A DNA stretch of 64,000 nt, from positions 558,001 to 622,000 of the forward strand of contig QPGO01000020.1 in NCBI GenBank assembly GCA_008632985.1, in the 5' to 3' direction. This document shows, one piece after another, positions 1 to 45,391 of this stretch. Numbering within the stretch: position 1 is the first letter of the stretch; every line of letters begins with the position of its first letter. Below the pieces are notes generated by a model. That model saw only the letters and a list, made by a program, of their open reading frames with translations, did no database searches and was not told the DNA's origin. Position numbers and translations under genes: made by a program. This DNA is from Psammoneis japonica (taxonomy: Eukaryota).

Positions 1-73
1 AGACTGCACAGAGATCCCGAAGGAGCTCATTGCAGCACAGCACAAGGTCACTCTTTGTCTGGACAGCCTCAAG

Positions 74-3000
74 GTGAATGGATTGCCATTCCTCACCACA
101 GTGTCACGAAACATTTTTCATCGCACGGCACAACCGCTCAAGGACTTGACCCAACCAACTCATCAAGAAGCTCTGGAAGATGTGCTGCGAGTCTACAACA
201 AGGCCGATTTGAAGGTCACACGCATTCATTGCGACAACGAATTCAGGCCCATTGGGAATGCACTAGAAGACAAGTTTGATCTCAAGGTGAGCTGCGCAAA
301 TGCTCAGGAGCATGTCCCACAAGCCGAAAGAAACAACCGAGTTATTCAAGAACGTGCCAGGGCAGTCTGTCATCAGCTGCCATTCAAGCATCTGCCAAAA
401 CTCATGGTCGAAGTCATGGTCACCGAAGCTGCTAAGAAGCTCAATTGTTTTCCAGCCAAGCACGGCGTTTCCAAACATTGCAGTCCAAGAATGATTCTCC
501 ATCAAAAGAATCTAGACTGTGACAAGAGCTGCAAGATCACGTTCGGCACTTGTGTGCAAGCTCACAACGACCCGGACCCCAAGAACACCCAAGAGTCACG
601 GACCTTAGATTGCATTTGTTTGCACCCCACTGACAGCAACCAGATTGGACATGAGTTGCTGCACTTGCAAACCGGCAAGAAGATCACTCATCGCAAGGTC
701 ACCCCTGTGCCCATCACTCCCGCCATCATGAAGCAGGTTCATCGTTTGGCTGAAATGAACAAGATGCCCAACGGTCTCAAGATTCAGAGCCGCACTGGAG
801 CTGTTTTGTATGACAGTGCTTGGCTTGCAGGAGTGGATTATGATGAAGATCAATTTGAAGACGAAGGTTGTGATCTAGAAGAAGACATTGAAGGCTGAAG
901 ACGATGAGGAAGAAGAGCTAGACTGGGGAGACTATGACAGAGTTAGTCAAGAAGAGCTGCAAGACACAATTCGGGAACAAGAATTGGATGAAGAAGCCAG
1001 CTGCATCAGTTAACAACAAGACGAGACTCAAGAAGAAACCTCCAATGATGAGCATCTCGGAGACAATGACGAAGTTGGTTCTCAACCATCAGACGGCAGC
1101 GGAATCTCACAAGAAATCGATGACATGATTGACCACATTGATGAACAACAGAGGCTGGAACAAGAGAAGGAACACTCTCCGGAAGTGCAAGAGATCATCG
1201 ACGAAATGAAAGACCTGGAATCTGATGACGAATCTGGAGAGGAGCAGAGTGAAACCAAAGAAAGTGTCCAAGAAGAGCCTGTTGCTACATCCAGGGCAGG
1301 AAGGACTCTCAAACCTCCAGTTAGATTGGGAGACTGCCAATGCCATCTGCAGACTCAAGCCCATTCACAAGAAGAAGCGTGCAGCTTGGAGACGGCCAGA
1401 ATCATGGCCATGACAATGTGCCAGTGGAACGAAAAGGTTAGCATGATTTCCACTGATGAAGAAGCACACCAATTTATTCAGACTTGCAGCTTGGCACGAG
1501 GACTCCAGAAGTTTGGAGAAGAAGGCCACAAGTCGGCAGTGTTAGAGCTGAAGCAAATCCATGACAGAGTGGTTTTCAAACCCATTCACATCAAGGACAT
1601 GACTCCACTGGAGAGGAAGAGAGCCATGGAGAGCCTCATGTTTCTCACAGAGAAGAGAGATGGACGAATCAAGTCAAGGTTGTGTGCAAACGGAAGCACG
1701 CAACGAGAGTGCATGGACCGAGATGAAACCGCCAGTCCGACAGCATCAACAGAATCCATTCTCATTGCAGGAGTGATCAATGCCAAGCAAGGCAGAGACG
1801 TCATGACGGCAGACATTCCAAACGCATTTGTGCAAACGGACATCGAGGTCAAGGATGAAAAGATCATCATGAAGATCCGTGGAAGGATGGTGGACATGTT
1901 GCTGGAATTGGATCCAGACACTTGCCAGGACTGCGTCGTGTGCGAAGGCAAACACAAGGTTCTCTACGTTGAAATGTTGAAGGCACTCTACGGAATGCTG
2001 GTGTCTTCCATTCTTTGTCACAAGAAGTTCCGCAGAGACATCGAAGGAATCGGATTTGAGATTTGATCCTTGTGATCCATGTGTCGCCAACCACATCGTG
2101 AATGGAAAACAACACACGGTGACATGGCATGTGGATGATTTGAAGTCCAGCCACGTTGACAGCAAGGTCAATGATGAATTCAAGATTTGGTTGGACAAAA
2201 CTCATGCGGATGAGATCGGAAAGGTCAAAGTCACGCGTGGAAAGAGGCATGACTGTCTAGCCATGACTCTAGATCACTCCATTCCAGGAGCATTGCAAGT
2301 TGACATGGTGCTTTGTGTGCAAGAAATGGTCAAGGAATTCTTCAAGAAATTCCCAGAAGAATTGTCGGGTGACGTGGATTGCCCGTGGAGCGAGAAGCTC
2401 AACAAGGTGGATGAGACAGCCAAGAAATTAGATCTCAAGCATGCTCAAGCATTTTGCACTTTTGTGATGAAGGGCATGTTTGTGTGCAAGAGAGCCAGAC
2501 AGGACATTCAGCCTGGCATTGCTTTTCTCTCTACCAGGGTCAAGGATCCGAATGAATCGGACTGGCCAAAGCTGGTAAGGCTCATGAATTTCCTCAAGAC
2601 AACCCAGCTTGATGTCGCAGTCATGTCGGCTGGAGACAAAGTTGTCATCGAGTGGCACACGGATGCCGCATTTGCAGTCCATCCGGACCATAAAAGTCAC
2701 ACAGGTTCTGCCATGACCCTTGGAAAAGGTGTCATTACATCAGTCAGCACGAAGCAGAAGATCAACACCAGGAGTTCTACGGAAGCAGAGATCGCCGCAG
2801 GAGACGATGTTTTGGCAAAGGTCCTTTGGACCAAGCGTTTCATTGAAGCTCAAGGTTTTGAAGTCGAGCGTAACATCATGCATCGAGACAATCAAAGTTG
2901 CATGAAACTAGAACAAAATGGAAAGGCCAGCTCGGGCAAACGCACGAGGCATTTCAACATCAAGCATTTTTACATCACCGACCTCATCAAGCGAGGAGAA

Positions 3001-3255
3001 CTTGAGATCAAGTTCTGCCCAACAGACAAGATGATGGCAGATTACATGACCAAACCAGTGGTTGGTAAAAAGTTCATTACTGATCGTCAAGCCATCATGA
3101 ACATCCAAGTGCCTAAGATGGTCAAATTTGGAAATGGCAAGAATCTTGTCATTGGTCAGCAGGAGTGTGTTGGAAATGGTGAATTAAAAGTTCAAACACC
3201 GAAATTAGATAGCGCGAAGAAGACGTATGCGTCAGCGCTCATGTGCTCTACGTGA
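74..3255 (+). pseudogene. pol: copia pol (IN-RT-RNase H), frameshifted near 895 and 2060, many Tyr->Cys/His changes
   Basis: ORFs 74-898, 1125-2066 and 2056-3255 carry successive pol motifs in different frames. Confidence 0.92.
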
Positions 3256-5902: not shown

Positions 5903-6229
5903 GATTGAAAAAATGAATTTCTTTGCTCGTGTAAGTCAAAACAAAATATATGCAAGATACTGGAAGAATGGAACAACCGAACACAACTCTCCAAACACAG
6001 GCTACTAATACTGTATCGTTCCTCTCTCGACTTTACTGGAGATGGCTGTCAAGGAAACTACAGCAGCAAACAACAAACTTCCAAACTGAAAACTGGAAAC
6101 GCATCAAATCATCATCCGCCCGACGACAAAACAAAATAATATGCAATTATCGGAGTTGAATGTCTATATTTGAGGGAAAATGCCGGTACCGCTCGCTCGA
6201 TGATGCGATGACTCACTCATCACATCATT

Positions 6230-9200
6230 TACGCACGCAATCATGGGCCATGGTTGGGGATGCAACACAGCGCCTTGTCGTGGAGACGACGAGTGGTTTT
6301 TCAAAGACTTGTTGCCCATGCCTCATGCCTGCGGCCTGGATCACTGCGACAGTCCAGCGCAACTGGCTGGCCTCTTGAGGATCCAAAGACTCTCATCATC
6401 AGAATCATCGCCATCAGAGTTTTCTCGCACACCGGCACTTTCTGGCTGGCTCTCAAGCTTCCTGGTGGTGTCGCTGAAGACCATGTCAAGGCCACAAGCA
6501 GTCATTTGGTGCTGCATGAAAAAGATGCATGGAATGACCATGGCTTCAGAAGCAACAAAGGCTGGCGGTTCTTGAAAAAAAAGGTTGCTGCTGATTTCTG
6601 TTTGGTGACCAAATGAGCCACAGACTGTGCGCTGGCAATGATGGAGCTTGGTCACACTGCAATCTGTTGATTGGATGGCAGCAAGGTCAGTGCAAGAATC
6701 ACAGCAGTGCAGCAGCCAAGAATCACAAGAAAACTGGGGCCACTTCTTCTCAGGCATGGAACTCAACATGGCGCAGCTTGAAGCTGTCAGTGTGTCCAAC
6801 TTGATGCACCGTTGAGAAAACTGTAAAGCTCATGCAATGCTGCTTGTGCACGGGCACAAAGTGCTGCAGCTGCTGGCTGGCTTGAAGTGTTTCTTGCTCT
6901 CAATCTTGGAAAGTGCTGTTGCAGCAAAAGACATGCAAGCTCCAGCTGCTTTCCGACGGTCGTTTGAGCTGACACACCCGCCCAATGTTTCAATGGCACA
7001 GGATTTGGTTGCAAAAGAGGATTGTTTGCATGTCATTGACTGAGCTTTCTTCTGTTGGACTTGCTCTCAACAACTTGCTTGTTCTTTTCTTTGAAGAACT
7101 TCATCAGCTGTTGAAAGGTGTTTTGAAGCAGCAAGAAAGCCTCTGCCCCATGCCCCATGTTCATTTTGATTTGGGTGTTGGGCATGCTTGCACATGTCCA
7201 AGACAAACAAGCTGCAATCAGAGTTGCTTGAGAGACACACTCCAGGCAGCATGCTTGGCATTGGAGCAACAGCGGTCATTTGAGATGGCTGCCAGTGATC
7301 ACAACTGAAGCTTTGAAGATTCCCCATCTGAGCTGGTGGTTTGTCTCACAGTGACACCACTCAATTGGTCTTGATGGCACACATGGCTTGAGGTTGTCAT
7401 TTTCGACTTTGCCTCCAGTTGGCAGCTTTCCTCCACACAACATTGACAAGCTTGGCATGCAGTGCCAGAGGCACAAATCATGTTGGAAGAAGCCAAGTTG
7501 GTCATGTGGCAAATGACTGTCAAGACTCCGCACTCATCACCTCTCTGCAACCGGCCTCACTTGATGCTTGATGGACTGAATGCATGCATCATGCAAGCAC
7601 CAAGTCAGCATGAAATGCAGTGCAATGAAGGGCTGGTGTGGCAATGATCTCATTCATTCGAGAAAGAGCACGAGGTGACTTGACAACGCTTTGCATCAAA
7701 AACAGCAGCTGGCTGCTGATGAAGCCACTGTGAAATGCCCAGTCCCAAGATTTTTGACAGGATTGGAACAGGATTTAGGTGCGCGCAAAATGTCGTGCGC
7801 TGTTCAGTTTACCGTGCACAGTTTTGTGTGCTTCAGTTCCGCGCGTTCGCGCGCTGTGCAGTTTGCTTTCGAGCCACAAGGCTCACAAGAATGACAACAG
7901 CAGCCCGATCACACCGACTCACACGTCTTTCGGCTCCTGCAACGGTCTCTGAGTGGAGACTCATCTGCCATTTAGACAGCAGCAAGGAGTTGTTGTTTGA
8001 ATTCTTGCCATTTGCCTTCAATTTCTGTCAGATTGACAGTCTTGCTCATTGTCAACCCATTGAGCAACCGCCATCGTCGTCGTTGATTTGCCGACGATGC
8101 CGTTTCAATTCTGCGTGGACCTCCGTGTGTGTTCTACGTACATCGGCAAGTCTGCGCGCATTCAATGCCAGGCATCGGCAGGAAGTTAACGTCACCGTCA
8201 AGTCTCCTCACCGCTGGACATCTGGGCTGATCATGCCACCTTTTGTCGCTAAAGACACACATTCAATTTTGGACAATGCTGCTGTTGCCTCCAGCTTGGA
8301 CACATGTCCAACAAGCAGATGCTGCCTCAGCTGCTTCATTCGTCATCAGCTGCATTTGACAAACAGTGGTTGGCTGCGCCAACTGGTTTGTTTGCTCATT
8401 CAAAAGTGAGAGACAGACAGACAGAGACAGCCACAACAACCAGTGTCATGACCAACATCACAGCCAAGCCAACAGCAGGCACACCCACACAAGCATGGCA
8501 CCTTTCTTTCTTGCCACTTGCAATGCACAAAGTCATCTCTCAGAATGGGGGTGGCTGAAGTCTCAAAGAGAAGTGTGAGTCACAAAGCATGACTCTGCAA
8601 GATGGCTGCAATCACAAATGAGTCAAACAGATCTTCAAACACTGTGGGATGTGGAGAAGAACACATCTGGTTGAAATTGGGGCTGATGACCCACAGAGGA
8701 GCATTGAACCCACTGGAGGGTTTTCAAATGTGAGAGACACTCAAAGAGCCACTCAAGTTGTCTGAAAGCACCTTGCAACTTTCATGAAAAAGGCTTTTTC
8801 CATCATGCACATCATCTTGGCCCAATGCTCAGACAACACAAGCACTCAAAAAGTGCGTTAGCTGGCAACTCAACAACTGCTCCATTTGACCTGTGCAAGC
8901 ATTCAATGCACATGCAAAAAGTGAATTTGCTGGCTGTGGCAGTGTGACCCCATCAGAGCCATGGGCCACTTTGAAAGGCAGTGGTTGTTTTTGATGTGTT
9001 CCAACAGCCTCAGGTGGGAGCTTGCAGTGCTGGGGTGTGACACAAACATTTTTTTGCAATGTGCTGCATGTCAAGCATGTGCACTGTGCATTTTTTAGTG
9101 GGCTCTTCCACAGAATTGCTCTGCACTCCCTGCTTTTCAAAGCCTGGTGATCATTGGTGCATTCATCACCTGACAATTTGCTGTGGAGCTTGCACGCAGA

Positions 9201-9734
9201 ATTTTTGCAGGCTCAGCAGCATCACAGCAGGAATTGCCACCCACCAGCACATCTGGGTCACATCATCGCACCTTGAGACAACTTCCAAAGACATGCGCAA
9301 CCAAGTGCACAGAGGAAAACAGGCCCACATGGCAATGGTGTGCCGACATCATTCAACAACTCAGCACTGGCAGAAGATCCAGCTTGCAACGAGAACAAGA
9401 TGATCAACTCACGGTGCCTTCAAAGCAACCATGGCAGCAAAGATGACGATGTGCTTCAAAGAGTCCAGTGGAAATTTTTGTGTCCTCCTTGCAACAAAAT
9501 GAGCGAACTGATTCAAACTTCACTTTTTCCCTGTGAACGGGATGACTTTCATAAAAGGACCTCACAAAAATGAGTGCAAAAATGGTGGTCATGCAGAGAT
9601 GATGCTGCAGTGTGCACAAGTGCCAAAGCCATGTCTCTTGTCTGCACAAAGCAGCAATGGCTCGGAGGCATTGCCCGCACCAGCAACAAGCACTTGCACC
9701 GGCAACAAGTGCGCACACCAGCAAAAAGCAGGCA
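6230..9734. repeat. TpA-depleted hypermutated repeat/TE remnant, family unidentified
   Basis: TA is nearly absent and TG/CA is abundant. Overlapping Cys/His/Gln-rich ORFs occur in all frames. Confidence 0.6.
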
Positions 9735-12493
9735 ATGAACTTGCCCCACCGGCATGTGTTTGATCCTGCTCTCCAGGCTTCTCTCTTTCGGTTTGGCTTC
9801 CCGGGCTGTAGGGTCGAATCGAGAACAGGCTGTGGAGAACACAAAGTACACTCTGAACTACAAAGTGCAACTTTAGCATGACACTGCATGTGCCATTGAT
9901 CCCACTTTATGCTTCTCTCCCTGAATTCGATTCCCTTGGCTACAACTAGGGTCGATTGCTTCCGTGACGCCAATCGGGAACGGGCCACAGCCAAAAACGC
10001 GAGGCTGTGGGCAGCATGCGGATCTAGCCTCTCTAGGCAGCAATGGTTGTGTTTGGCAATAAAAAGATTGTATTGGGATCCATTAATTTGAACGAGACGA
10101 TTGAAAAGCTGCATGAACAACAAAGTTCTGTGTTTGTTCTAGACGCCACAGAATGCTTTCCATCTTTTATTGCCACAGAGAGGAGCCGCCATCCTTCCTG
10201 GCGCATAGACAGAACCATTCCGTGACGCCAACACTCACCTCATTCTTTTCATTCTTCCACAATTCATTCTCCGCGTCCGAAACAAGCAAGGGCTTGGTTC
10301 ATTGACTGCCGCGGGTCTCGAGCAAATGCAGAGTCGTCATGTCGTTGAAGCACCAATCTTGCCTGGTGCACATTTTGTTCCGGAAAACACAAGTCGCGGG
10401 GTGGGACCCACTGTCACTTGAACCTTGGTATTTCAACAAAGACTGACTGCCGCATCGTTCAAGTCGGGTGGTTGAACCGGTGTGAGGGTGCATTTCTATG
10501 TCGACAAAATGAAGGGGAAAAGCAATGTCAGCAAACAAATCTCGAATGAAAAGCAAAATAGACACGAAATCGACTTACATTGGGGGTGCATTCGAATGTA
10601 GCGTAGCACAACGAGCGCACCCCATGGCATTTGAACTGCACGACAAACTCGTGCAATGTTGGCGAGTCTTTGATGCGCACAAAAGCTGCACTGCACCATG
10701 AAATGGAACCAAGAGATGCCCCCATGCATGCTCCATGTCCAAGAGTACAAAACAAGCAGTTAATGAGTCTAGCGGCGACTCATGATCCTTGCGGATCTAC
10801 ACACGACACACCCAGCATTAGACGAAAGAAAGACGCTGCCCGTTGCTCCACCGAGCCCAGGCAAGCGTCTCAAAGAGACAGGACGGGCTGCTTTCTCCTC
10901 GTTTCTCGCAGCAACAACAACAATGCCCACAGGATCGACGTTTTCGTCTGGAAACTCCGCGTTCTCCACGTCTTGATCCTCTCCTTCTGGCATGATGTCA
11001 TGTTGCACTAACCCATCGTCGACAGGATCCTCCGAATCATCCATCGGCATTTCCACGTCTGGTGGATCATTCAAGGCATCATCAGGCTCCTCGTCAGCTG
11101 CTGGAACGACTTCCCCCAAGGGTTCCGCTTCACCCTCTCCTTCTGGAACAATGTCATGTTGCAGCAACCCGACGCCCAAAGGATCCTCCGAATCGTCCAT
11201 CGGCACTTCCACGTCTGGTGGAGCATCCAAAGCATCGTCTGGCTCCTCACGCACTTCAACAACTGCATCCACCGGAACAACTTCCTCCTCGGCAACAGGA
11301 TCATCATCAAAAGCAATGGCAGGATCAGCAATGGGTTCCTCAACCACTGCAACTCCGAAAATGGCCTCGACCGGTTCAATTGCCGCTGGAGTCCGTACCC
11401 ATCCACGCCAGTGATCACATCTTGGGTGCGATTGACATCCATGAATGTACAGGTTTTGTTTCGAGTCAAACTCAAGCAGCGCCGCAGTCAACTGCTGATC
11501 ATTCAGGAGGGGAAGAACCCGAGTGTAACGTGGACGTCGAAGAACAGGTTTAGCAACCACGCCAGTTGGGATTGGAGGAAGGTCACCGACAAAGACATTC
11601 TTGATCAGGTCTTCATCCGGCAGCCATCCTAAAAGCCGCTGATGATGCTGCCGAGCCAGCTTGTCATGCTTCTCGTCGATTCGTCTCAATGCAACGTTCA
11701 ATGTCTGACCCGACAGCACTGGAATCTTGGTCGTGTGCTTTGGATGTCGAAGAACTTTTGGAGCAACCACGCCGGTTGGGACTGGAGGAGAGTCGCCAAC
11801 GACAATGCCTTGAACAAGCATTCGGTCCGGTCTCCATCTGATCCGACCGCTGCCACATGCTTTGCGCTTGGCGTCGTCAACAGCTGCTGCAGAATCGTCC
11901 AATGCTTCAGCCACAGGTTCCTTTACTGCGGCAACAGGAACGCCCACCTCCACATCGACTGGAGCATCGTCAACATCCACAGCAGGCTCGTTCAAGGCAT
12001 CCCAAGGATCAACAGTGTCATCAGCTTCAGGAGCTACATCCTCCACCGCAGTGGGATTGTTGCCCATGGCATCAGCTGGTTCAATGGCCGCTGGAGTCCG
12101 TTCCCATCCACGCCAGTGATCACATCTTAGGTGCGATTGACACTCACGAATGCATTGGTCCTGCTTCCATTCAAACTCACGCAGAGCTGCAGCCAATCGC
12201 TGTTCATCCAATGCGGGTGTTGCACGAGTGCATTGAGGGATCCGAAGTCCTCGCGGAGCAACCACGCCGGTTGGGACTGGAGGAGTGTCACCAACGTCAA
12301 TGCCTTGAACAAGCATTCGGTCCGGTCTCCATCTGATCCGACCGCGACAAAATGGCTCACGCTTCAAGAGCAGCAGCCATGGGGATAAAAATTGCAAGGG
12401 AACATATACGGCATAATGCATGGTCCATACAACCACTGCAACCGCAAGAATGGCCGCAACAGCATCGCACGCTCGATCATAAAGAAGAGTCGT

Positions 12494-12840
12494 TGTGGGA
12501 AAGTAGCCAGAATTCTAAGATTCGTCTGCACTTTCAGTGGTCAAAAGCTGCAATTGCGATACAACAATCAATCAGTAACTTTATTGTACCAAAAGTTGAG
12601 AGGTGATAATCAGTACGTTAGAAAGATTATGAGCAGTTTTTATGAGCAGATGCAGCTGCCATCTAAAGGAAACGCGAAGTTAAACAAGCGCGAAGCTAGG
12701 AACAAATATCGCATTCGTGACTCGGCTTCCGCGGGATTCGAGACTGAGCATCGCACACGGGGTTCGAATCTTGGATCTCTGATTGGAATCGTGGAGGTCC
12801 GATGTTGTTGTAAAAACATGCAAATATGAATATTGTCACA
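12494..12840 (-). repeat. 3' LTR (largely unmutated)
   Basis: Direct repeat of 18655-19001. Preceded on the minus strand by PPT TTGAAGGGAG (12841-12850). Confidence 0.95.
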
Positions 12841-12883
12841 CTCCCTTCAACAATGTCGGGTGGAATGATGACTCGAAAACGTC

Positions 12884-15800
12884 TTACCACTTAAGGAGCG
12901 ATTTCCTGTGTTTAACGAAGAGATTCTGTGGTAGAGGTTTGGTGAAAATGTCTGCAATCTGATCCGCCGTATCAATTGGTAGGATTGATATGAGACCTTT
13001 GCGAACATGGTCTTTAAAGTGGTGGAGAGTGAGGTTGAAGTGTTTTGTCCGAGGACGCATCTTAGGCAATCTCGCGATCTCCAATGCTCCAGAATTGTCT
13101 TCAAAAGCCTTACAATGTACGACTGGTGTCTTGGAAGGGACATTATGACCGTGATCCATAAATTCTTGAATGAGGTTCATAATTGGGATGGTGCTTCGAA
13201 GACTTTCCGAAAGAGCGATAAATTCAGCTTCAGTAGTGCTGAGCGCGATCTGAGTCTGTAGCTTGGACGTCCAGACAATCGGACATCCTGCATAGGTGAT
13301 GACAAACCCAGTTCGAGATTTGGAAGTGCCGACGTCATTGGGTGCAGTCAGCTTATTCCAATTGCCCACAAAGTCCGCGTCGGCGTGAACTTCAAGGGAC
13401 TTGTCCGTTGAGGGCTGTAGTATAATACCTTCAGTTCTGGTTGACCTTAGGTACTTACAGAGCCATAGTACGGCTTCACCGTGAGAAACCTTGGGATCGG
13501 AAGAAAAGCGTGCGACTTGGTGCACCGCGTAAGCGATATCCGGTCGAGTGCTCTTCTCCAGAAAATTGAGCTTGCCGATGATGGATCGGTAATGAAAGCT
13601 CCCTTGGAAAGCAGGCTCACTCATATGCCTGTGGAGGATCTTGGAGGAAGGAGCAGGAGTAGACTTATCTGGTAGTCTCTTTGGAATATTGGCCATCTCC
13701 AGTATCTGATTGATAAGGTGAGGTTGGGTAAGTTTCATTCTGCCGTCTGGTAGTGTCTCGACGTTGACACCGAGATAGTCGTCCAGAGTGCCTTGATCAT
13801 CAATATCAAACTTCTCATCTCTGATATCCTGTATCGCCTTGTCAATAGCAGACTTGTCAGGGGATGCAAAGATACCGTCATCGACATAATGAATGAAAAT
13901 GACATTGCCACGAAAATACAGGCACTCATCAACTGCCGATTGTACGAAACCAATCCTTAACAATCCATCACGTAAGTGTTCTTGCCATACTCTCCCTGCT
14001 TGCTTTTGTCCATATAAGTTCTTGAGCAACTTCAGAACATGAGTCTTACCATTGCCATATCTTGTTTCAATTCCTGCAGGTAACTCCATGTACATATCAT
14101 ATTCGATATCGGCATGCGGATACGCCAGAACGAAGTCGACTTGGCGTGTATGCCACTTCTTAAGAATGGCAATGATCAGTAGGAGCCGGATAGTGAACCA
14201 GAAGACCACGGCAGAGTAGGTCTGGAAGTAGTTGACAGCATACTCTTGCTTTCCACCGTGCACATTAAGTCGGGACTTCCATTTGTAGACGGCTTGGGTC
14301 TTAATATCTCTTTTGCGCTTCATAGACCATACCGAAGGGAGAACATCAACATCGTCAGGTACGTCCTCTCTTGGAATGAGTATCCAATGTTTCCTTTCAA
14401 TATGATCATTGACTTCCTTAACACAGGCCTTGATAAATTCGTCTCTGTCAGGTTCACGCATAGCCTGATCAAAGTACATGGTGTCGGGGTCCGAGCTCGC
14501 CAGAAAAGAGATAGGTGAGTCCATATCGTCCTGCAGTTTGTAATCATCCTCGTGCATCGCATCATAATATGCCTCTGCCTCTGCATTGTAGGAGACAATG
14601 CCTTGAGCCCGTTGTAGTTGGCTCTCGCGCATCCTTTCGGTCGGGCGTCGTTGTCGGCCGGACCTACTGGTATTGGGTTGACCCATAGTGCGCTGTGGCT
14701 CAGATGGTGCGTCTGAATCATCTGGAGGTGTGTATAGCATTTCATCATCCGGTTGGGCATTGTCAAATGAGTCATCAGTGGTAGACGTATCAGTAGGATG
14801 CAGCAGCTGAGACGGGATATCCGAATTCGGCTCAGGTGGTTCCGTTGTGGTAGGGACTGATCCCTCAACCGGTACGTCACTTGATTTCCCAAAGATGTTG
14901 AAAGTACTCCTTGTCTTGAGTTGTCTGAAACCTGTAATGCCTTGCCATTGTGAGAATGTAGGAGGATTCCCAGCAGATGGACGAACAGTCTCAAAGAAGT
15001 CGTCAAATTGTACGTGAAATTGCGGCGATACGAGTCCGGTCTGCAAATTCAAAACCAAGGTAACTGAACCTGCGTGTCTTGTTGATGGTCCCAAATTGAT
15101 TCCTAACCTTGCCCTTGGGTCCCACTTAGGCAGCCTACCTCCTCCCTGCAACCGGTTGTGCAAGGCGTAGACGGGACAGCCGAAGGTATGGTGTTGTTTG
15201 AGATTAGGCTGGACCTTAACGGACGAGAAACGTTCCAGCGGAGAAGAGCCGTCCTCGTGATTCGGTAAGTGATTCTTGATCTCGTTTGAGTTCCTGAGAG
15301 CGCTTGGCCATAAGTTCAACTCAATAGCCGTTGGCCATCTCACTTTTGCATGCAGGAGTTGCTTCCGAGATTGCTCTTGGAGGTCCCTTATTCTTTTCTC
15401 CGCGATGCCGTTTTGGAAGTGGGCGTTGACCCCACAATAGGATATTGTTTGCTGTTGCTTCTTGACGTCTTGTATGAAAGCATTATCAGCGAATCTTCCA
15501 TTGTCGGCGTGGTAGTGTTGAATACGGACGTGCATCCGGCGTGCGAATGCCTCGAAAGCGTGCTTGGCTTCGAGCGTTTCGGCTGAGGTAAGTCCTTTCT
15601 GCAAATATATGTATCCCAATCCGCTGAAATGATCAACAAAAATTGTCGCTGCTCGATACCTTTGCTTCGTAGGTCTCCCTTTGAGCTGTGGGATCAATCC
15701 AGGAGTAGGACTCTCGAGCTGGTCGACGGATACGGCTTCTCCAGGCGAAGTTGCCAAGTGGATTCGTCGGTTCCGCTTGGACTTGGAGCGCCATGGTCGT

Positions 15801-17074
15801 TTCGTCATGGCACCGTATAGGCAGCCGGCACATTTTGGGTTGTGTACCTTTGTAAGGCGTTTCGGTAGAATGCCTAGGGCGGCCAATAGCTTTATCATTT
15901 TGAATGACATGTGGCCCAGGCGGTAATGCCAACGCAATAGTTCACCCTGGTCATCTGTGGCAGCAAGGGCGTCATCATTTGGTGTGATGTTGATGGGTTC
16001 CGGAAAGTCCTGCTGTGCCTCCGGTGTCGTGAAATCCCTTAGGTTTTCCTCGTCTGAGTCTGAACGACTTGCTCCGTCTGTTGGCTCAAATGAGACAGGA
16101 GCATCCTCATCAGCAGTGTTGCGTGCGTCTTGCGTCTCGGAAGGACGTGTCTCGGATGGACTTCTGAAGACGTCTGTATCAATTGCAGCCTCGTCATCAT
16201 TCGCAACACTCTCGTCGTCTGGTGGTATGATGTGAGCTTGACAGGCCACGTGCTCGATAGTTTCGATGTCGGTTTGTTCTTCGACAGCGGCTGCAAAGGT
16301 CCGGCATTTGTTGGAACCGGGTGCGGAGCGCATCTTGGCGACGTTAGAGTTGGCGGACCATGGAATCAGGCGATGGCACTTGCGCTGGTCCCACATCAGC
16401 AACAGTCCGTCGTCCCCAGTCCAAGATGCGGTTCCGTGAGGCTCTGGCGTGTGGTCATTGGCTTGCTGGCTCCATTGCTGCGGGCAGAGAAGACAATGAG
16501 GTAAGTCCGGTACGAGCAGCGCGTCTCGAATTTTGATGCTGTGCACTCGTCCCATGTCGTCCTCAATTGCCCACTGCACTGTTCCTTCTCCCTCAGCACG
16601 CAAGCAGCCCTTGACACCGAGTGCCACTTTGTTGGATTTGCGAAGAGGACCAATGAAGTGTGCCTCGTCGTTGGACATGGTGCAGGAAGAATGTGAGTCG
16701 ACACCGATTGCGAATGAGTCCGAATCGTAAGTGGGCTCCGTTCGCTCGGGACGGCATGGTGTGGTTGAGTTGTGCGCTCTAACCGTCTTGTGTCGCGCAA
16801 TGACACAGCGAGCCTTCTTGGTGGCCACTCTGGAGCGGTGACCTGGCCTCGTCGACGCATGACACCGTGCGCAGCACCTCGTCGTTGGCCGTCGCTGGTG
16901 AGTCTTAACTCGTCTTGTGCACTTTTCTGAAGGAAGGGACAGCATCACGAATGGCAGTGTGATCCAGATCGGTGCTGCACATTTCATGACGCCAGCGACC
17001 GCTGTCAGGAGCACTGACACAGTGACGGCTGTCTGCAAGGACAGCAGCAGTGTCAGAGTGAACCTGCAGAGCAG
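12884..17074 (-). CDS. pol: copia Pol polyprotein (protease, GAG-pre-integrase, integrase, RT, RNase H)
   Basis: Uninterrupted 1384-aa ORF with motifs IGVDSHSS, WHYRLGH..CAGC, SVDQ..ADNG..QNGIAE, LYGQKQAG, HYVDD, ADADF and ADIFTKPL. Confidence 0.95.
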   Translation of the reverse strand: MLCRFTLTLLLSLQTAVTVSVLLTAVAGVMKCAAPIWITLPFVMLSLPSEKCTRRVKTHQRRPTTRCCARCHASTRPGHRSRVATKKARCVIARHKTVRAHNSTTPCRPERTEPTYDSDSFAIGVDSHSSCTMSNDEAHFIGPLRKSNKVALGVKGCLRAEGEGTVQWAIEDDMGRVHSIKIRDALLVPDLPHCLLCPQQWSQQANDHTPEPHGTASWTGDDGLLLMWDQRKCHRLIPWSANSNVAKMRSAPGSNKCRTFAAAVEEQTDIETIEHVACQAHIIPPDDESVANDDEAAIDTDVFRSPSETRPSETQDARNTADEDAPVSFEPTDGASRSDSDEENLRDFTTPEAQQDFPEPINITPNDDALAATDDQGELLRWHYRLGHMSFKMIKLLAALGILPKRLTKVHNPKCAGCLYGAMTKRPWRSKSKRNRRIHLATSPGEAVSVDQLESPTPGLIPQLKGRPTKQRYRAATIFVDHFSGLGYIYLQKGLTSAETLEAKHAFEAFARRMHVRIQHYHADNGRFADNAFIQDVKKQQQTISYCGVNAHFQNGIAEKRIRDLQEQSRKQLLHAKVRWPTAIELNLWPSALRNSNEIKNHLPNHEDGSSPLERFSSVKVQPNLKQHHTFGCPVYALHNRLQGGGRLPKWDPRARLGINLGPSTRHAGSVTLVLNLQTGLVSPQFHVQFDDFFETVRPSAGNPPTFSQWQGITGFRQLKTRSTFNIFGKSSDVPVEGSVPTTTEPPEPNSDIPSQLLHPTDTSTTDDSFDNAQPDDEMLYTPPDDSDAPSEPQRTMGQPNTSRSGRQRRPTERMRESQLQRAQGIVSYNAEAEAYYDAMHEDDYKLQDDMDSPISFLASSDPDTMYFDQAMREPDRDEFIKACVKEVNDHIERKHWILIPREDVPDDVDVLPSVWSMKRKRDIKTQAVYKWKSRLNVHGGKQEYAVNYFQTYSAVVFWFTIRLLLIIAILKKWHTRQVDFVLAYPHADIEYDMYMELPAGIETRYGNGKTHVLKLLKNLYGQKQAGRVWQEHLRDGLLRIGFVQSAVDECLYFRGNVIFIHYVDDGIFASPDKSAIDKAIQDIRDEKFDIDDQGTLDDYLGVNVETLPDGRMKLTQPHLINQILEMANIPKRLPDKSTPAPSSKILHRHMSEPAFQGSFHYRSIIGKLNFLEKSTRPDIAYAVHQVARFSSDPKVSHGEAVLWLCKYLRSTRTEGIILQPSTDKSLEVHADADFVGNWNKLTAPNDVGTSKSRTGFVITYAGCPIVWTSKLQTQIALSTTEAEFIALSESLRSTIPIMNLIQEFMDHGHNVPSKTPVVHCKAFEDNSGALEIARLPKMRPRTKHFNLTLHHFKDHVRKGLISILPIDTADQIADIFTKPLPQNLFVKHRKSLLKW

Positions 17075-18580
17075 TCACTCTTGATCCACTTCGTTTGGGA
17101 TGGCAGAGATGGCACTTGCGAAGGAGACTTTCTTGTCCGACGTGTCTGTGGATGGAGCAGACTGTTGCTTGCGGAGTCTACAGCCTTGGTTGCCCGGATC
17201 ATCAGGCAAGTGCATGACCCAAGCAGTGTGACATGGGCACCAGTGACAGTCGCGATTGTTGACGCGCTTGTGATGGCACTGATGACCGTTCACTGTCTTC
17301 TCAGGAGCGTCCTCCTTGGGCGGGACTTTCTTCCAGGCTTCGTCCGCTTTCTGTCTCTGACGTGGAGTGGTCTTGGTCTTCCTTGACCGTGTGCTTCTTT
17401 CCTTGGTTGAACCAGCCTTGGCCTTCAAAGCTTTAGATGGCTGAAGGTTCTGATCCTTGATGGAGTCTACCTTGGCTGCAAGCGCGACGATTTGCTCTTC
17501 AGCCGGTGATGGTGCTCCCCACTTCTTCTCGCGCTTGAGGTCAGCACATTTGTTCAGTGCCAACGTCATGATTTGCGTCGGCGTGAATTCCTCACCGTCG
17601 TCGCACCTGTCCTTGTGCAACATGATGTGCTTGACGAATGCTTCGTCAGCAGCTGCGGCGCATCCTTTGAACAGATTCATGATGAGGTCGTCGCACTGCT
17701 CTCCTCTAGCTTGGAGTCCGTCAACGTTGAGCTTGGCATGCTTGTTGAACTCTTCGATGTCCGAGTTGACAGCCGCCATGCAGGTGTCCAGGCTTGACAA
17801 GTTCTCGCGGAAGCAGTTGGTGGCAGAGCGTGTGTCAACGATGGCCTTTTGCGCAAGCAGCTTGAAGAATGGTGTGCCGATTTGATTTCCATTGATCGTG
17901 TGGGAATCTGTCTCAGCCAATGTCTTGTCTCTTGCTTCCTCCGCAAGGGATTGAGAGATCGCCTCGGCCATCTGCACATTGTTCTGTGCTTGTCGCGCAG
18001 GCAGATTCGCGAAGGTGTTCGCGTGGGTTCTAACATCCTGCAGAGTGAGCAGTCCGCACTCGGAGATGAGATCTCGTGGAGTTCCATTCACGTCGGGAAT
18101 GGCAAGCATGTCTCCTGCCCCTGTTTTCCATCCTGCCTCGGCAGCTCGTTGACCGAGTGTCTCACAAAACCGTTTGAGACCTTCTGAATCGCCGTTGAAC
18201 TCGTGCGGCAGCGGTGCAGCAGCGGCGTTCCAAAGCTTGAGGCCTTGCGATGTGCCGCAGTCAATGAAGTTGTTGGGACGGTGTTGACCTGGAGTCAACG
18301 CGAAGATCGGCAGTGGCGGCACAGGCGCCAATGGTGGTCCACCTGGCGGGACTCCACCTGGTGGGACTCCACCTCCGCCTCCTCCTCCACCTCCTCCGCC
18401 ACCTCCTCCTGGAGGCACACCGGGAGGAACGACTGGGGGAGGTGCAGGAGCAACTGGAGCGGCTGCAGGAGCAGGTGCTGTTGCCGGAGCAGCAGCAGTG
18501 GCAGGAGCTGCAGCGGGTGCAGCAGCGGGAGCTGCAACAGAGGCAGCTGGAGCAGCCGCGGTTCATGTCTGCGTGACCAC
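17075..18580 (-). pseudogene. gag: copia Gag with Ala/Pro- and Gly-rich N-terminus, start codon lost, no Tyr left
   Basis: Motifs FALTPG, NSDIEEFN, KKWGAPS and zinc-finger-like HWCPCHTAWVMH. The frame extends upstream to GTG GTC ACG CAG ACA TGA at 18580. Confidence 0.85.
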
Positions 18581-18641
18581 AGCAACAGCAGAGTAAAGCA
18601 GAATCGAGAGCTCAAGATCGATTGACTCAACTTGTAGATTT

Positions 18642-18654
18642 CGCAGAGGAAGCG
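18642..18654 (-). promoter_or_regulatory. Putative primer-binding site complementary to the D-arm of initiator tRNA-Met
   Basis: CGCTTCCTCTGCG abuts the 5' LTR. Its complement CGCAGAGGAAGCG resembles the eukaryotic tRNAi D-arm GCGCAGNGGAAGCG. Confidence 0.6.
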
Positions 18655-19001
18655 TGTGGGAAAGTGGCCAGAATTCTAAGATTCGTCTGCACTTTCAGTG
18701 ACCAAAAGCTGCAACTGCGATGCAACAATCAATCAGTGACTTCATTGTGCCAAAAGTTGAGAGGTGACAATCAGTGCGTTAGAAAGATTGTGAGCAGTTT
18801 TTGTGAGCAGATGCAGCTGCCATCTAAAGGAAACGCGAAGTTGAACAAGCGCGAAGCTGGGGACAAATGTCGCACTCGTGACTCGGCTTCCGCGGGATTC
18901 GAGACTGAGCATCGCACACGGGGTTCGAATCTTGGATCTCTGATTGGAATCGTGGAGGTCCGATGTTGTTGTAAAAACATGCAAATGTGAACATTGTCAC
19001 A
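18655..19001 (-). repeat. 5' LTR (hypermutated)
   Basis: Direct repeat of 12494-12840 with 19 transitions. Confidence 0.95.
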
Positions 19002-22000
19002 GTCGTCAGGTCGTCAATGTCCACAATTCGGCGGTGCAAGTGATGGACACAACTGCCAATTGACTTCAACACCAAGCACATGAATGTCACAGCATGCAAA
19101 GAGAGGAGAACTTTACAGACCGCAAGGACAAAGGACACGACAGCGTGAATCGTGCATCGAATCTTGCTTGCAGAAACGCACGAATTCCAAAGGAAACCGC
19201 TGATGATTCGGCCGTGGTTCTGCTTGCCGTGATGTGCACGTAGCAGGAGATTCACAAAGAGCATGATTAGTGCAATGCATGCAATCACAATGGGGGCAAC
19301 AGTGTCAACAAAGATAGAGATTGGTAAGAGTGTTTCAATTCAACAGAAATTGGATTTTTGTGTGGTGAGAGAGGTGAGCGAGACACGGTCGCTCGTTGTT
19401 GCGGCTGACACCATTCGTGAATGCGTAGAAACTCTACTGGAGAAGCCTGTAGAGAAGCCGACAGTCAGTCACGCTTTTCAAGTTTTGACGGGAGACTAAC
19501 TAGAGGCACGTTTGCATTCGGTTCCTCGTAGGCTCTCAACTAGCCAGTAGTGGGGTGAAACAGTCAGAGGCCGAGACTGTGATAATGTTAGATTTATCCA
19601 TTTAAAATGAACAATATCTGCTTTTGAGCTCTTCTACAATGACACTCAGTTTATTGGATTCTCGTGCTTTCTCCCGCGGCAGATTTGTTAAAGCATCTGA
19701 CAATGAAATAAATTCTTGATCGAAAATATCGGTAGGGTAAGACTACTCATTCTCCGCCCCAATGATTGAGGAGTAGCCTCACAGGCTGGTATAATGACGC
19801 ATTCACTTCCGTGCGTACTCGACAGTGCCGGGGGTGCTATGTCTTTGCGTATCTTCGCCAACAACTTGAACAACAGAGCTATCGCTTTACGTTGCTGAAA
19901 GGTAACTTGTTGATCAAACAAACAACCGGCACCAGACTCTTTGGCCGCATTGATGAAAGTACTTTCTCAAACAACTTCGTTTCTTCAGCACTGACGACCA
20001 GAGCATCGTGCTTGTTTTCAAGACATTAGCATGTGACTAGTAAGGCTCCCCTTGCGTACGCAGCAGCAGAGACAAGAACACATCCAGCGCAACTTGGTCA
20101 CACCGGATAGAAGATTCAGATACTATTCCCGTAAGTCCAAGCACGTGATACTTGCCCATAGCCTGACTGGTTGATGTTGTTGCAATGGCAGGTAAAAGTA
20201 TTTCTACCGGGCATGCGACTGAAACGGCAAACAAGTCGATTGACACCAACATTCGGCGTAAATTTAGTGCCGCCAGACTCGAAGTATAGCTGTTTGCTCT
20301 ATTTAGCTTCGTTGCGGGTGGTATCAAGCTAGGGTTGTCTGCTCCGACTGTACCGGTACGGCGAAACTGTACTCTACTGTAGGAATACCCGCAAAACGAA
20401 GAACCTCCAGAAGAAAATACAATAGCGAACATTCCCTCGAATCTTGCAAAGAATTTCAGACTTGTTGGGTTAATCGGGCATGGGTATTTACCATAGGGAA
20501 ATCTGAAGTAATCAGGATGCATCTTGCACATAATTTCAGACTTCTTGGGTCGTTCCGTCAAAAGCACTTACAGTAATCTGAAATACTCACGGTGACTATG
20601 TTGTATCCCGCCTGTCGTGTCACGGTCTGTAAAAGCAAGTGAGGAAAGGTGAATGCCAAAGTTGCGCACGTTTCCCAACCACCAATGTACCATACAATAA
20701 TGATTCTTCTCAAGAAATTTGACTTGACGAGTCGTTAAGGCAGTTGAAAAGTTCATTTTGCGCGGGTGACGAAGCAACAGCAACAGCAACGCGAAAAGGG
20801 AGATCGAACAATCGCGTCTGGCGTCTGACAACTACTTGTTGGTTGCTTATCTTTTTCGTCTGCAGACTGGATTGCAGCTCTCTGCTACAAATGTACCGCA
20901 CTTCACTCTGGGGTTCACCATTCAACTCCAGATCCACCTGTTGCGACATGTGCGTTTCACACGACAGAGGTCTGGATACCTGTGGTGTGCGGCACGAGAG
21001 GGCTCTCTCGAGTGCCATGGACTTGCTACTGCATGGAATTGTTTCGACGTCTTGAAGCGCAGCGGGCTTTTTCCCATGTTGAATGGATGCGTTTGAATTT
21101 GAAGCGTTGGATTTTCTGTCCGCCGTCCCGTCTCCCGTCCGTCGTGCGCAGAGTTTGTCAACACAGCAAAGAAAAAACACCGCACCATGGCGTGTGGAAC
21201 TCGGAGACCTACCACTCTGTAACTTCTGTAAGGATTTGTCAAGCGACACCGCGTCTAAGAATTGTTTCATAACTTCAAGTTTTGCCATGATTTATGGGGT
21301 CGGTGTTTGGATTAAAGGACGGCAGGAGAACGGCAGGAGAATCAGAAGTGCTGAAAAAAAGGCGTCCATCTCGGCATAAAGAGCAAGTACATCATGCGGG
21401 ATACAACTCGATCGGCAAGCTTGTTTGGTCGGTTTGGTGGCTTGTTTGGTGGATGTCATTTTGAAGTTCTATGTGAATGAATCATACTCGTTTGTATTAC
21501 AAACATGCTGATGCGCCTTTCCTCTTATTCAAAATACAATCTGTCTCATTCCATACTATTTTTCTTTGGAATAGCTCAAACATGAATTAAGTATTACGAT
21601 TTACGATGGCCCCGGGCATTGCAGCCGAGATTGGTAGCCAGATTGGCGCCCATGGGAATAATGATGTCTCGGCCGGCGCTTCGCCCATCCTTACCCTACG
21701 GTTGTATGCTCATTACTATGGATGCAGGTAAGTTGTATCCTTCACTAAAAACGTTTGGAGATTCGCAACCCGAAAGCATCCTCTCTTTTTGGTTTCCACC
21801 TGGTACGGAGTTTCATTTCTAATCTCATTCTTTATTCCGTTGCTTGTCATACCCAATCACAGCCAGCATCTTTATGCGAGAAATGGACAAGTAGTGGATT
21901 GTCTCATGTAAATGCCGCAGCTGTTGGTAGGGAAGTTTTCAGTGCATTCACGATATTCATTTCGGGTAATTGCTGTCATGGCTGTTGCTTTCGGTCATCC

Positions 22001-27465: not shown

Positions 27466-29009
27466 TTTCATGTCGTGCTTCAAATATAAGCTATGTGCTC
27501 GACGGTATCATGAATACCCTTCATTTTTGCTTCCAAGGCTTTCTGAGCATACCTGTACTTCTGATGCACTTCATCACAATCCAAGCATGAGACGATGTTC
27601 TTATTATACAGGCGTCTCTGACCCGTGGCAGCAGTTGCGCTCGCTTGTTCCCCGAGAAACATCTCTCTCACGACACTTTTACAAACAAGGCAACTCTCTG
27701 AGCCTTGATAGTTGTTATAGTTGAAGCAGTCCCTCGAGAGTCAAATGCGAATGCCATCCATATGCTCCGTCGCGATTCATGTAACAGTGATTCTACGTTG
27801 TACATAGTCGACCCGAGTGCGCTCTCCAAGACAGAGCATTTGCTTTTATCAGTTTCAAGCGCTCGTATTCTGACCATGTGTGCCCTTCAAGTGATGGAGA
27901 AATGCCAAAGCTAGAGAGGACACTGGGTGCAGTTTGCCTCCTGTACTTTCCTCGTCTGTAGCGGGATCGGTTTGCATTCGTATTAATGCTCGAGTTTGCA
28001 ACAAGAGCCTGCATCGGTCCTACCAGAGTCTATCTGATACACCAGGGTCCAACACACTACGAAGGCGTGACCGTCGTTGCCTCTCAACATGTCATAACTG
28101 TCCACGATTATGTGTTTTGCTTTGGCCGTCAATCTTCAATCTTTATTCATGCGCTCCAAGCAAATGCATCAGCGATGATATCAGTTTAAGAGCCTACCAG
28201 AAACCGGATTCCGATATCTGTAGATGCGACGCTGCTTGTCTCGCCCTCGAGAACCCGAGCAAAGCAGCCGTAGTTTTGCAGCAACAGTAATAACAACACG
28301 AGCCAATCAGAAACTCGAAGACGAGCCCGCAAACGAAGCTCGCCCATTCTCGCAACGGCATTCCCAAGATTCAGAGGCAACCATTTCAAGCCAAGTATAA
28401 TAGCTGTGTATCGTTTCAAGCCCGTACACGAGTCACGTTGGTCGTGCTTCCTCCTGAATTCAGAATGGGACACGCCAAGTTTCCAACTGCACGCTAGGTT
28501 GAGTTATGCAGGGGAAAGTAGCCATTATCTTGCGTCGACCTTGCTGCAAAGCGATCGATAAATTCTATAACGGCCAAGCTCTGTCGTCGGCAACGCATCG
28601 TTGGCGACTCACTCAATCACTGCGTAGACATCAACAATAATACTTTTTCAAGAGCTTCTTTGCAGTCACTTGTAAAGGGCCGAATGTCACCAACTGAATG
28701 TTCTTGTTGAGAGTCGCCGAGTGACTGCTCAGCCCAAACCACGCGGTAGCATAATCACATATCACATTGATTTGCGCCTCATCTCTCCGTCTCGGGAAGA
28801 CGTTTCCCATGCAGTTTCTGAGATGCTGTACCGACTGCCTGTCTGATTTTCAAATTTTTGATTCCTCTTCTTTCTCCTCGCACTTGTATACATAGATGAG
28901 GGATTAATTCTATATATGGATTTTAATATTTTCTTTTGATCTCAACGGATCCGTTTAGGAATGATCGTCAGACGGAAATAAGAGAACATAATTTTAATGA
29001 GGAAATAAT

Positions 29010-44621: not shown

Positions 44622-45391
44622 GGCCTGTTCCAGCTCCAGGTGCTCCGCGCGGGTTCGATTCCCATCATTTGGAAATTTGTGCATTTAGCGCAATTGCTGT
44701 GGCCCTTCAACCACCGGGCTTGAGCAAATCTATCTCCACGGGTGGAGATTTGCTCGCTTACGTCACAAATGCAGCAAATGAAGTAATTTCAGATGCGCGC
44801 GACATTTTGTTCGCGCGATTTTGTTCTGGAGCGCGCATTCGCCGAAAATCTGGAGGCACCCTTTTTGTAATTTAGAAAGTTCAATGTCGACTTTCAACAC
44901 CGGGTTTTTTGCAAGCTTAATCTGTGAACAGAGAGGAACTAAATCTCAACCTTTGACAATGGAGGTCATCATGAATTGCTGTCACAAACAGAGCAACAAC
45001 ACCACACCCTGGGAGCAAATCTCCACTGGCGGAGATTTGCTCCCAACAAGCAAATGCACATGGCACACTTTACGTAGATTGCAGATGACATGACATTTTT
45101 TACCATGTTCATCACTTTATTGTAAAAGTGCATGACACATCACACATCCTCAAGCAGAGCAAATCTCCACCCGTGGAGATTTGCTCCCCTGGTGGTTGAA
45201 GGGTTGACTTTTTCCAAATCCGTTTTTTGCCAAATCGAAGGGCAAGTGTGCACTTTACATGCATTTTCGGGTGTGCACTCACCTTTCGATTTTCGAAACG
45301 ATCAAAATTGAAGGAGTTGGTTGCACCAAACTGCACAGAAAATCGGCCTCTCGTGTGATGAAAAGCAGAGCACCTGGAGCTGGAACAGGCC
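44622..45391. mobile_element. Outer MITE-like element with 24-bp terminal inverted repeats (TIRs) and CTCA direct repeats
   Basis: GGCCTGTTCCAGCTCCAGGTGCTC at 44622 and its exact reverse complement at 45368-45391. CTCA at 44618-44621 and 45392-45395. Confidence 0.85.
44703..45203. mobile_element. Inner MITE-like element (CCCTT ends, piggyBac-like) with palindromic subterminal hairpins
   Basis: TIR CCCTTCAACCACC / GGTGGTTGAAGGG. GAGCAAATCTCCAC-nn-GTGGAGATTTGCTC palindromes at 44722, 45013 and 45157. Right flank is TTGA. Confidence 0.8.

Follow-up and report, generated by a model that had tools for sequence, protein, structure and literature searches.

Until now, a mutator that changes A:T to G:C pairs and is aimed at selfish DNA was described only in a single 2026 preprint, which deals with viral insertions in the chlorarachniophyte Bigelowiella natans (Mettrop et al., 10.64898/2026.01.13.699255). 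According to the text of that preprint, 231 of 302 nuclear mutations in 15 mutation-accumulation lines fell in regions of giant-virus and virophage origin, and 230 of these 231 were A>G or T>C, all of them on TpA. The rate was about 6e-7 per site per generation, 1000x background, and only some of the lines were affected. The same text reports 124 clusters of 1-kb windows poor in TpA and rich in CpA plus TpG, as well as an enrichment of reverse-transcriptase and DDE domains among TpA-poor genes; its authors propose an ADAT2-like adenosine deaminase and cite DNA editing by ADAT2 in amphioxus and Trypanosoma. Our literature search found no description of TpA-directed hypermutation of transposons beyond this preprint. 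Here, we describe a new case of this recently described kind of mutation, with a new target class and new quantitative detail, in a stretch of 64,000 nucleotides (the window; contig QPGO01000020.1, positions 558,001 to 622,000). The process has acted on a Ty1/copia retrotransposon at 12494-19001 of the window, which carries a long terminal repeat (LTR) at either end, and on the host repeat in which the element lies. The first-pass annotation of this DNA had stated that no such system was described; the preprint, which reports hypermutation of TpA to TpG or CpA, corrects that statement.

Other systems share parts of the signature. Fungal repeat-induced point mutation (RIP) likewise inactivates chromosomal selfish DNA by dense transitions that follow a dinucleotide rule within tracts. 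However, RIP makes TpA from CpA, mutates all duplicate copies, and creates stop codons, whereas the process described here destroys TpA, left one LTR and one of two repeat copies untouched, and removes TAA and TAG, so that reading frames stay open. APOBEC enzymes of vertebrates have also left deaminase-type hypermutation in integrated LTR elements, but as outlined in PMC4866542 they convert C to U on minus-strand cDNA, giving G to A on one strand before integration and leaving the two LTRs alike. At our locus, the mutated base is a different one, both strands are hit (46:48), and the LTRs differ. ADAR hyperediting of repeat-derived double-stranded RNA resembles the present case in changing A to G, in favoring a 5' U, and in targeting repeats; nevertheless, it acts on RNA, is confined to animals, and cannot make LTRs differ, whereas here the LTRs do differ and flanks outside the element are mutated. 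Finally, TadA and ADAT2 act on adenine with an obligatory 5' U or T. Wild-type TadA is described as dependent on UACG and TadA-8e as preferring UA (PMC12296453), and U-A-C-G is compatible with the T-A-Y preference found here. Their known natural substrates are tRNA loops or single-stranded DNA, in contrast to the even mutation of both chromosomal strands, without strand runs, at our locus.

The two LTRs, defined by a repeat search of the window and MAFFT alignment, begin with TG and end with CA and are flanked by a 5-bp target duplication (Table 1). The pol frame shows, in Pfam, the domain succession of Ty1/copia elements, with protease and integrase ahead of RVT_2, and has 1004 homologues at E <= 0.001, the best public one being 61% identical, which leaves no outgroup from its own family at the level of DNA; gag and pol together are open over 5.5 kb. 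Because both are encoded on the minus strand, the right LTR is the 5' LTR and the left one the 3' LTR, as previously proposed. No second copy of the element was found within the 64-kb window. A second copy of the host repeat (copy B), however, provides the empty site and contains GTCGT only once, and therefore the LTR pair represents a single insertion, as opposed to a recombinant of two. The target duplication, the empty site, and the restriction of the mutations to one LTR together place their origin in the chromosome after integration, in agreement with the earlier proposal. The two LTRs thus serve as a built-in before/after control, showing action on integrated DNA.

Ungapped comparison of the LTRs revealed 19 differences, all of them transitions (12 A/G, 6 T/C, and 1 G/A, left/right) and none at a CpG site (0/19). 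The left LTR has A or T and the right LTR G or C at 18 sites, with the reverse at 1 (binomial p = 8e-5). Of the 18 TpA in the left LTR, 4 are kept in the right LTR (in CTAA, TTAG, CTAA, and GTAA), 11 read TG there, and 3 read CA; no TpA is found in the right LTR only. Positions with A or T in the left LTR differ at 14/36 within TpA compared with 4/164 elsewhere (Fisher p = 6e-9), and G/C positions differ at 1/147. These counts match those initially reported (19 transitions, 18 of them one-way and 14 removing a TpA); the additional remark that most of the differences outside TpA lie at ApT was mistaken, as only two of these five do (12554 and 12714). For the lone reverse site, 12540, the only one of the 19 sites that the listed contig differences polarize, we turned to assembled contigs, rather than raw reads, of one sample (three runs); A is found in all seven run X1 contigs that cover the place, and the site is most simply explained as an A-to-G change private to the left LTR. 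Counted as polarized by the contigs, A/T-to-G/C changes account for 19/19 LTR differences. At a neighboring position (12542 in the left LTR and 18703 in the right), both LTRs have C and all seven contigs of other copies have T, which would give TpA; this C may go back to a TpA-to-CpA change in the progenitor copy, predating the insertion.

The LTR pair by itself gives no direction of change, and we used proteins as outgroups. We aligned gag with 14 of its 20 matches and took as consensus-tyrosine columns those with Tyr in at least 60% of the 14. No tyrosine is present among the 447 residues of gag, compared with 6-19 in the 14 homologues, and at the 12 consensus-tyrosine columns it has Cys (7), His (3), Phe (1), and Ala (1). 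A change of TAY to TGY or CAY, that is, of Tyr to Cys or His, corresponds exactly to TpA becoming TpG or CpA. In pol, aligned with 70 of 120 listed homologues, a single tyrosine is found in residues 1-378 and 30 in residues 379-1396; the latter part keeps Tyr at 24 of 31 consensus-tyrosine columns, and 24 of the 26 pol tyrosines at conserved columns are ancestral. Therefore, TpA in the left half did not arise from CpA, and the replacement of gag tyrosines by Cys and His, together with the retention of tyrosines in pol, indicates that TpA was lost on the right and not gained in a RIP-like manner on the left. Relatives from environmental sequence give the same picture: their observed/expected TpA ratio is mostly 0.4-0.8, compared with 0.67 in the left half of the element and 0.14 in the right, and none of the 76 relatives contains a 1-kb window with a ratio below 0.23 or a tract of this kind. 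We also compared the window with the contigs, considering the 40 best-supported of 2018 differences. Among these, at tract sites where all other genomic copies differ from the window, the copies mostly have TpA against TG or CA in the window; the 11 places listed with TpA present in other copies and missing from the window are 12213, 12219, 12222, 12231, 12354, 12358, 12418, 16959, 17910, 19612, and 31372. Taken with the repeat pair described below, the protein outgroups uphold TpA loss as the direction of change, as first suggested. Conserved tyrosines are likewise replaced by Cys or His in the public homologues P0039, P0006, and P0050 (pol; 17/25, 16/29, and 11/29 columns) and P0133 (gag; 6/12 columns), and in P0006 and P0050 these replacements lie in blocks along the protein.

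The host repeat offers a paralogue pair with a clean spectrum of 94 events. Copy A, interrupted by the element, differs from copy B at 171 of 3426 aligned bases. In 94 cases, a TpA in copy B stands against TG (46) or CA (48) in copy A, compared with 2 in the opposite direction; the remaining mismatches are 36 transversions, 12 other A/T>G/C, 8 other G/C>A/T, and 19 that involve CpG. Overall, this amounts to 113 A/T>G/C changes (94 at TpA), 22 G/C>A/T changes, and 36 transversions. Within the tract part of the pair, 92 of 135 TpA are converted and no CG products are present. The latter would be expected if a hit on one strand abolishes the TpA of both.

Conversion varies with the nucleotide that follows the adenine on its 3' side and, per strand, amounts to 34/86 before T, 38/80 before C, 14/60 before G, and 4/44 before A. 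Over all tracts in the window, k-mer survival independently follows the same order (ATAT, 0.011; ATAC, 0.02; GTAC, 0.04; CTAG, 0.14; CTAA, 0.39; TTAA, 0.46), and so do the TpA that survive in the right LTR. The context rule is thus T-A-T ~ T-A-C > T-A-G > T-A-A, which explains why replacement of Tyr by Cys is more common than replacement by His. Any candidate enzyme must reproduce this order (T-A-Y > T-A-G > T-A-A).

TG and CA products follow each other at random along the paralogue tract, with 45 strand runs compared with 47 +/- 4.7 expected, and strand-coordinated clusters in the style of APOBEC acting on single-stranded DNA were not found along it. Together with the LTR products (11 TG and 3 CA) and the 46 TG and 48 CA of the paralogues, these data confirm the previous conclusion that both strands are affected. 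Identical sequences have met different fates: the two LTRs lie 6 kb apart and the two repeat copies 41 kb apart, and in each pair only one member was mutated. This indicates that the locus directs targeting and that homology, copy number, and element type do not. The label "Reverse-RIP" chosen in the first-pass annotation is misleading for this reason, as it implies dependence on repeats; place, and not sequence identity, decides the target. The 685-aa frame of the host repeat contains internal repeats of ~230 bp; it matched no Pfam family and had no homologue in a large protein collection. Contigs that join 12487 to 19001 are explained by uninterrupted copies of the repeat.

The mutated part of the element belongs to a wider pattern. 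A two-state segmentation divided the window into normal sequence and seven TpA-depleted tracts, which cover 27.3 of 64 kb (about 43%; Table 1). The element tract takes in the 5' LTR with ~320 bp of flank to its right, gag, and pol as far as about codon 360. Inside pol, the TpA observed/expected ratio falls from 0.55-0.82 to 0.04-0.22 between 15938 and 16040, and it recovers past about 19320. The other edges are sharp as well; at 29000, TA-rich sequence turns TA-free over a few bases. In the tracts compared with the rest of the window, TpA drops from 4.40% to 0.46% and CpG from 5.43% to 2.63% of dinucleotides, whereas the shares of CpA and of TpG both go up from 7.24% to 10.55%. The gain of CA plus TG (6.62 points) balances what TA plus CG have lost (6.74 points). 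The young element tract has a normal CpG ratio (0.86) and the deep tracts ratios of 0.14-0.49, indicating that TpA is lost first and CpG later. In the older tracts, a slower second process, probably methyl-CpG decay, would act in the same domains, the direction of the CpG change being taken from mass balance only. For the element tract, such decay does not fit (0/19 LTR differences at CpG; CpG ratio, 0.86), but it is possible for the older tracts (0.14-0.49).

The tracts contain the copia element, an old copia relic, and sequence without recognizable protein, and in a Pfam scan of the 66 tract reading frames of at least 110 aa only the copia relic was recognized. All Pfam-recognized host genes lie in regions of normal TpA; they encode a mitochondrial carrier, a histone deacetylase, a class-III aminotransferase, a GMC oxidoreductase, a cyclin, a methyltransferase, a DUF5010/CBM protein, and a metallophosphatase.

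Table 1. Features of the window, with positions counted from its first nucleotide; TpA and CpG values are observed/expected ratios unless stated as counts.
Feature	Position	Strand	Description
3' LTR (left)	12494-12840	-	347 bp; unmutated; 18 TpA; TpA 0.63
5' LTR (right)	18655-19001	-	347 bp; hypermutated; 4 TpA left; 14 TpA changed to TG (11) or CA (3)
Target-site duplication GTCGT, left copy	12489-12493		
Target-site duplication GTCGT, right copy	19002-19006		
pol	17074-12884	-	1396 aa; Pol_BBD 125-201, gag_pre-integrs 370-421, SH3_retrovirus 622-692, RVT_2 904-1131
gag	18418-17078	-	447 aa, followed by TGA stop at 17075-17077; in frame with pol
Spared part of element	12494-15989		TpA 0.67, equal to level in 76 environmental relatives
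Host repeat copy A, left of insertion	9735-12493	-	Hypermutated; 48-72% of copy B TpA converted
Host repeat copy A, right of insertion	19002-19681	-	TpA converted: 84% up to 19320, 12% beyond
Host repeat copy B	60078-63516	+	Normal TpA; empty site; 685-aa orphan frame 60424-62478; internal outgroup
Tract	1-2900		TpA 0.16, CpG 0.58; old copia relic with RVT_2 1014-2063 and RNase H region 2206-3105
Tract	6201-9800		TpA 0.05, CpG 0.38
Tract	10801-12400		From two-state segmentation
Element tract	about 15990-19320		3.3 kb (segmentation 16001-19200); TpA 0.14, CpG 0.86
Deep tract	29001-36600		TpA 0.05, CpG 0.14, CpA/TpG 1.8; without recognizable protein
Deep tracts	42901-44700 and 45201-51500		TpA 0.03-0.04, CpG 0.29-0.49

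The changes at this locus run from TpA to TpG or CpA, are specific for TpA, affect both strands equally and in interspersed fashion, approach saturation, and end at sharp edges, one of them within the copia element. We consider it probable that a real, locus-limited process is responsible, which converts chromosomal TpA in kb-scale domains of transposons and repeats and spares recognizable genes. In the history we envisage, the copia element would have entered sequence that was already repeated; its gag-proximal 3 kb and 5' LTR would then have lost ~78% of their TpA, and the other 3.5 kb with the 3' LTR none. The mutated domain may be delimited by a chromatin state, to which a TadA/ADAT-like enzyme would be recruited to deaminate the adenine of T-A to hypoxanthine, which would then be copied as G. 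Events would accumulate singly and not in one burst, until only sites in poor contexts survive. From the B. natans figures in the text of the preprint, we estimate a rate of about 1e-5 per TpA per generation (211 mutations / 6169 TpA / 3132 generations), at which the 78% TpA loss of the right LTR would take about 1.4e5 generations. This is far too short for background substitutions and would fit LTRs whose differences lie almost all at TpA.

Here, as in B. natans, the changes are almost exclusively A>G or T>C and strike TpA, within delimited regions of foreign or selfish DNA and with normal genes around them, and they leave stretches poor in TpA and rich in CpA plus TpG; this signature suggests that the two processes are identical. 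The target, in contrast, is a dated LTR retrotransposon and orphan repeats and not viral and virophage insertions; the text of the preprint, its supplement aside, nowhere uses the terms LTR, copia, retrotransposon, or CpG. Moreover, near-saturated tracts occupy 43% of the window, whereas in B. natans windows with a TpA ratio under 0.43 form a 5% tail. The proof from an LTR pair, the 3' neighbor rule, and the co-depletion of CpG in older tracts are likewise absent from that text, although its supplement may bear on the context rule. The gene structure in the window (long exons and few short introns), together with the far larger depleted share, may lean away from B. natans. The long exons and the copia lineage would fit a diatom. 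We tentatively raise the possibility, which we would not yet favor, that the window derives from outside the chlorarachniophytes and that TpA-directed DNA hypermutation is a genome defense widespread among protists, both marine and freshwater, and aimed at chromatin domains. It would be carried out by a T-A-Y-specific TadA/ADAT-like deaminase with access to both strands of silenced DNA, and it would outpace methyl-CpG decay while acting beside it.

Several observations weigh against the locus-limited process proposed above. Of the A/T-to-G/C changes, 4/18 in the LTRs and 12/113 in the paralogue pair lie outside TpA and CpG-creating contexts, compared with B. natans, in which all hypermutations are at TpA. 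The match to the B. natans process is one of signature, and the deaminase is a candidate. In addition, TpA is palindromic, and sequence alone cannot separate an adenine-centered from a thymine-centered lesion. At 16959 and 17910, the letter of the window is shown by no contig, and with contigs of one sample in place of raw reads, the support for the tract bases is indirect. Lastly, the spared left 3.5 kb lies between two mutated segments, for which a model of a single domain does not account. This arrangement could have arisen in three ways. The flank may have been mutated before insertion, with a second round limited to 15990-19320; the difference in conversion between right flank (84%) and left flank (65%) would fit two rounds but is not significant. 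Alternatively, mutation might have a nucleation point close to gag and a limited reach beyond it, or the left half might later have been restored by conversion from another copy.

The last option is one form of the strongest rival explanation, which accepts the process as real and attributes the LTR asymmetry to ectopic gene conversion or recombination among copia copies. Either an unmutated copy would have served to overwrite the left 3.5 kb once the whole of 9735-19320 had been hypermutated following insertion, or a hypermutated copy would have been the source of the right 3 kb. The spared segment begins exactly at the left end of the element, where homology to other copies starts, the last event in the flank being at 12452 and the first intact TpA of the LTR at 12504. 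This edge is equally expected, however, if the flank was mutated before insertion. The flanks are mutated to a similar degree (65% and 84%) as the right part of the element (78%), and donors probably exist, as contigs over the element sum to several times the depth found over neighboring genes, a measure of depth and not of copy number. No donor copy is in hand, though, and mutation of defined regions in place does occur in B. natans, as described in the text of 10.64898/2026.01.13.699255. We regard conversion as rather unlikely.

The palindromic nature of TpA invites another explanation, in which a modified thymine (similar to 5-hydroxymethyluracil) in R-T-A pairs with G, giving T to C without deamination of adenine. 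A change of A to G equals T to C on the partner strand, where T-A-Y reads R-T-A, and in dinoflagellates the thymine of TpA is preferentially replaced by 5-hydroxymethyluracil. On the other hand, nothing points to such a base in the organism from which the window derives, the 5'-T preference agrees with that documented for TadA-type adenine deaminases in PMC12296453, and the authors of the B. natans preprint (10.64898/2026.01.13.699255) favor an adenine deaminase in its text. A thymine lesion therefore seems to us improbable.

An artefact of assembly or base calling would arise if modified bases of silenced DNA (in TpA, and in CpG of the deep tracts) were misread on each strand of long reads and a path-based consensus wrote TG or CA. 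It would account for TpA and CpG both ending as TG/CA, and the 64 kb of repeat-rich DNA without any N suggests long reads. The best run contains only 0.57 of the 31-mers sampled from 11000-20999, and the two window letters without contig support, noted above, would also fit. Against this, an artefact predicts well over 100 all-contig mismatches in the low-depth stretch 28008-31371 of the deep tract, which is partly at single-copy depth, and none of the 40 best-supported differences lies there, even though differences resting on one contig of depth 55 do appear elsewhere among the 40. Similarly, 16001-19200 contains 3 all-contig mismatches among the best 40 of 2018 differences, compared with about 100 expected. 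Both counts are indirect evidence, as they cover these 40 differences. The gag and pol frames, open over 5.5 kb, indicate an accurate consensus, and the four public homologues with Tyr replaced by Cys or His come from other records, although their independence from this assembly is not established. The deep tracts lack detectable homologues, as expected of old, decayed DNA, whereas the younger gag is still recognized (E = 3e-142). Moreover, the same signature arose de novo in Illumina data of B. natans, according to the text of 10.64898/2026.01.13.699255. We conclude that an assembly artefact is unlikely, with a slim chance of being correct.

ADAR-like hyperediting of the RNA of the element, followed by reverse transcription, would give A to G with a preference for a 5' U, and the element seems to be transcribed in both sense and antisense orientation. 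Yet one template yields both LTRs in reverse transcription, so that edits would be expected in both, a prediction that the LTR asymmetry contradicts. Furthermore, the changes are equal on both strands, the tract reaches 320 bp into the flanking repeat, the opposite flank is mutated too, and ADAR prefers G on the 3' side, unlike the 3' pyrimidine preference seen here; we give this explanation very little credence. RIP-like or methylation-driven C-to-T mutation, turning CpA into TpA across the left LTR and the left half of the element, for which it can be said that without an outgroup the LTR pair gives no direction and that 14/18 sites would then be CpA to TpA, the preference known from Neurospora, is refuted by the protein and paralogue outgroups and has next to no chance of being correct, as left-half tyrosines are ancestral (24/26) and those of the right half became Cys or His, the left-half TpA level equals that of the 76 relatives, the pol frame has no stops although CpA to TpA would make TAA and TAG, the paralogue pair runs 94:2 toward TpA loss, and CpG is involved at 0/19 LTR sites. 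Biased gene conversion and selection against TpA can be rejected as well, as neither is TpA-specific at such intensity or able to separate the LTRs of one insertion. The outgroups, the lack of CpG among the 19 LTR differences, and the LTR asymmetry thus sustain the initial judgment that RIP-like C-to-T change, CpG decay, and RNA editing do not fit.

The probable process, TpA-directed mutation of chromosomal domains, has practical consequences for annotation. It erases TAA, TAG, and tyrosine codons without new stops, and dead elements that keep long frames mislead gene callers. Dating by LTR divergence is inflated about fourfold, as 19 differences stand against 5 outside TpA. On both strands of the tracts in this window, TAA and TAG together number 181, compared with 1263 TGA. 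Because TAA and TAG are almost gone from the tracts, long overlapping open frames arise by chance. At 45112-46373, five overlapping frames of 234-261 aa lie within 1.3 kb, with 0 Pfam matches. A frame of 485 aa at 34309-35763 gave one weak match among 1.84 billion protein representatives; the surrounding segment (34210-35763) contains internal repeats of a tandem-like kind that match each other at 72-86% identity with an offset of ~189 bp, and the frame is probably a by-product of these repeats.

Antisense to gag and pol (+ strand, 13971-18211), contigs of run X2 omit 13 segments of 70-113 bp. Nine of the 13 have GT..AG ends, and six combine a strong donor (GTAAGT, GTACGT, or GTGAGT) with a YAG end. 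This looks like spliced antisense RNA of the element family, the nature of run X2 being a guess; no long reading frame was found in the spliced antisense product. In the tract part of the present copia copy, GCAAG stands at the place of an expected GTAAG donor.

Finally, in the regions of normal TpA, changes of frame separate adjoining Pfam-matching pieces of the histone deacetylase (55386-56441), aminotransferase (59335-59942), and DUF5010 (38443-40773) genes. One of these changes adjoins a conserved HHA..GFC motif, directly after CAG. Short introns seem a likelier explanation for these frame changes than assembly indels.

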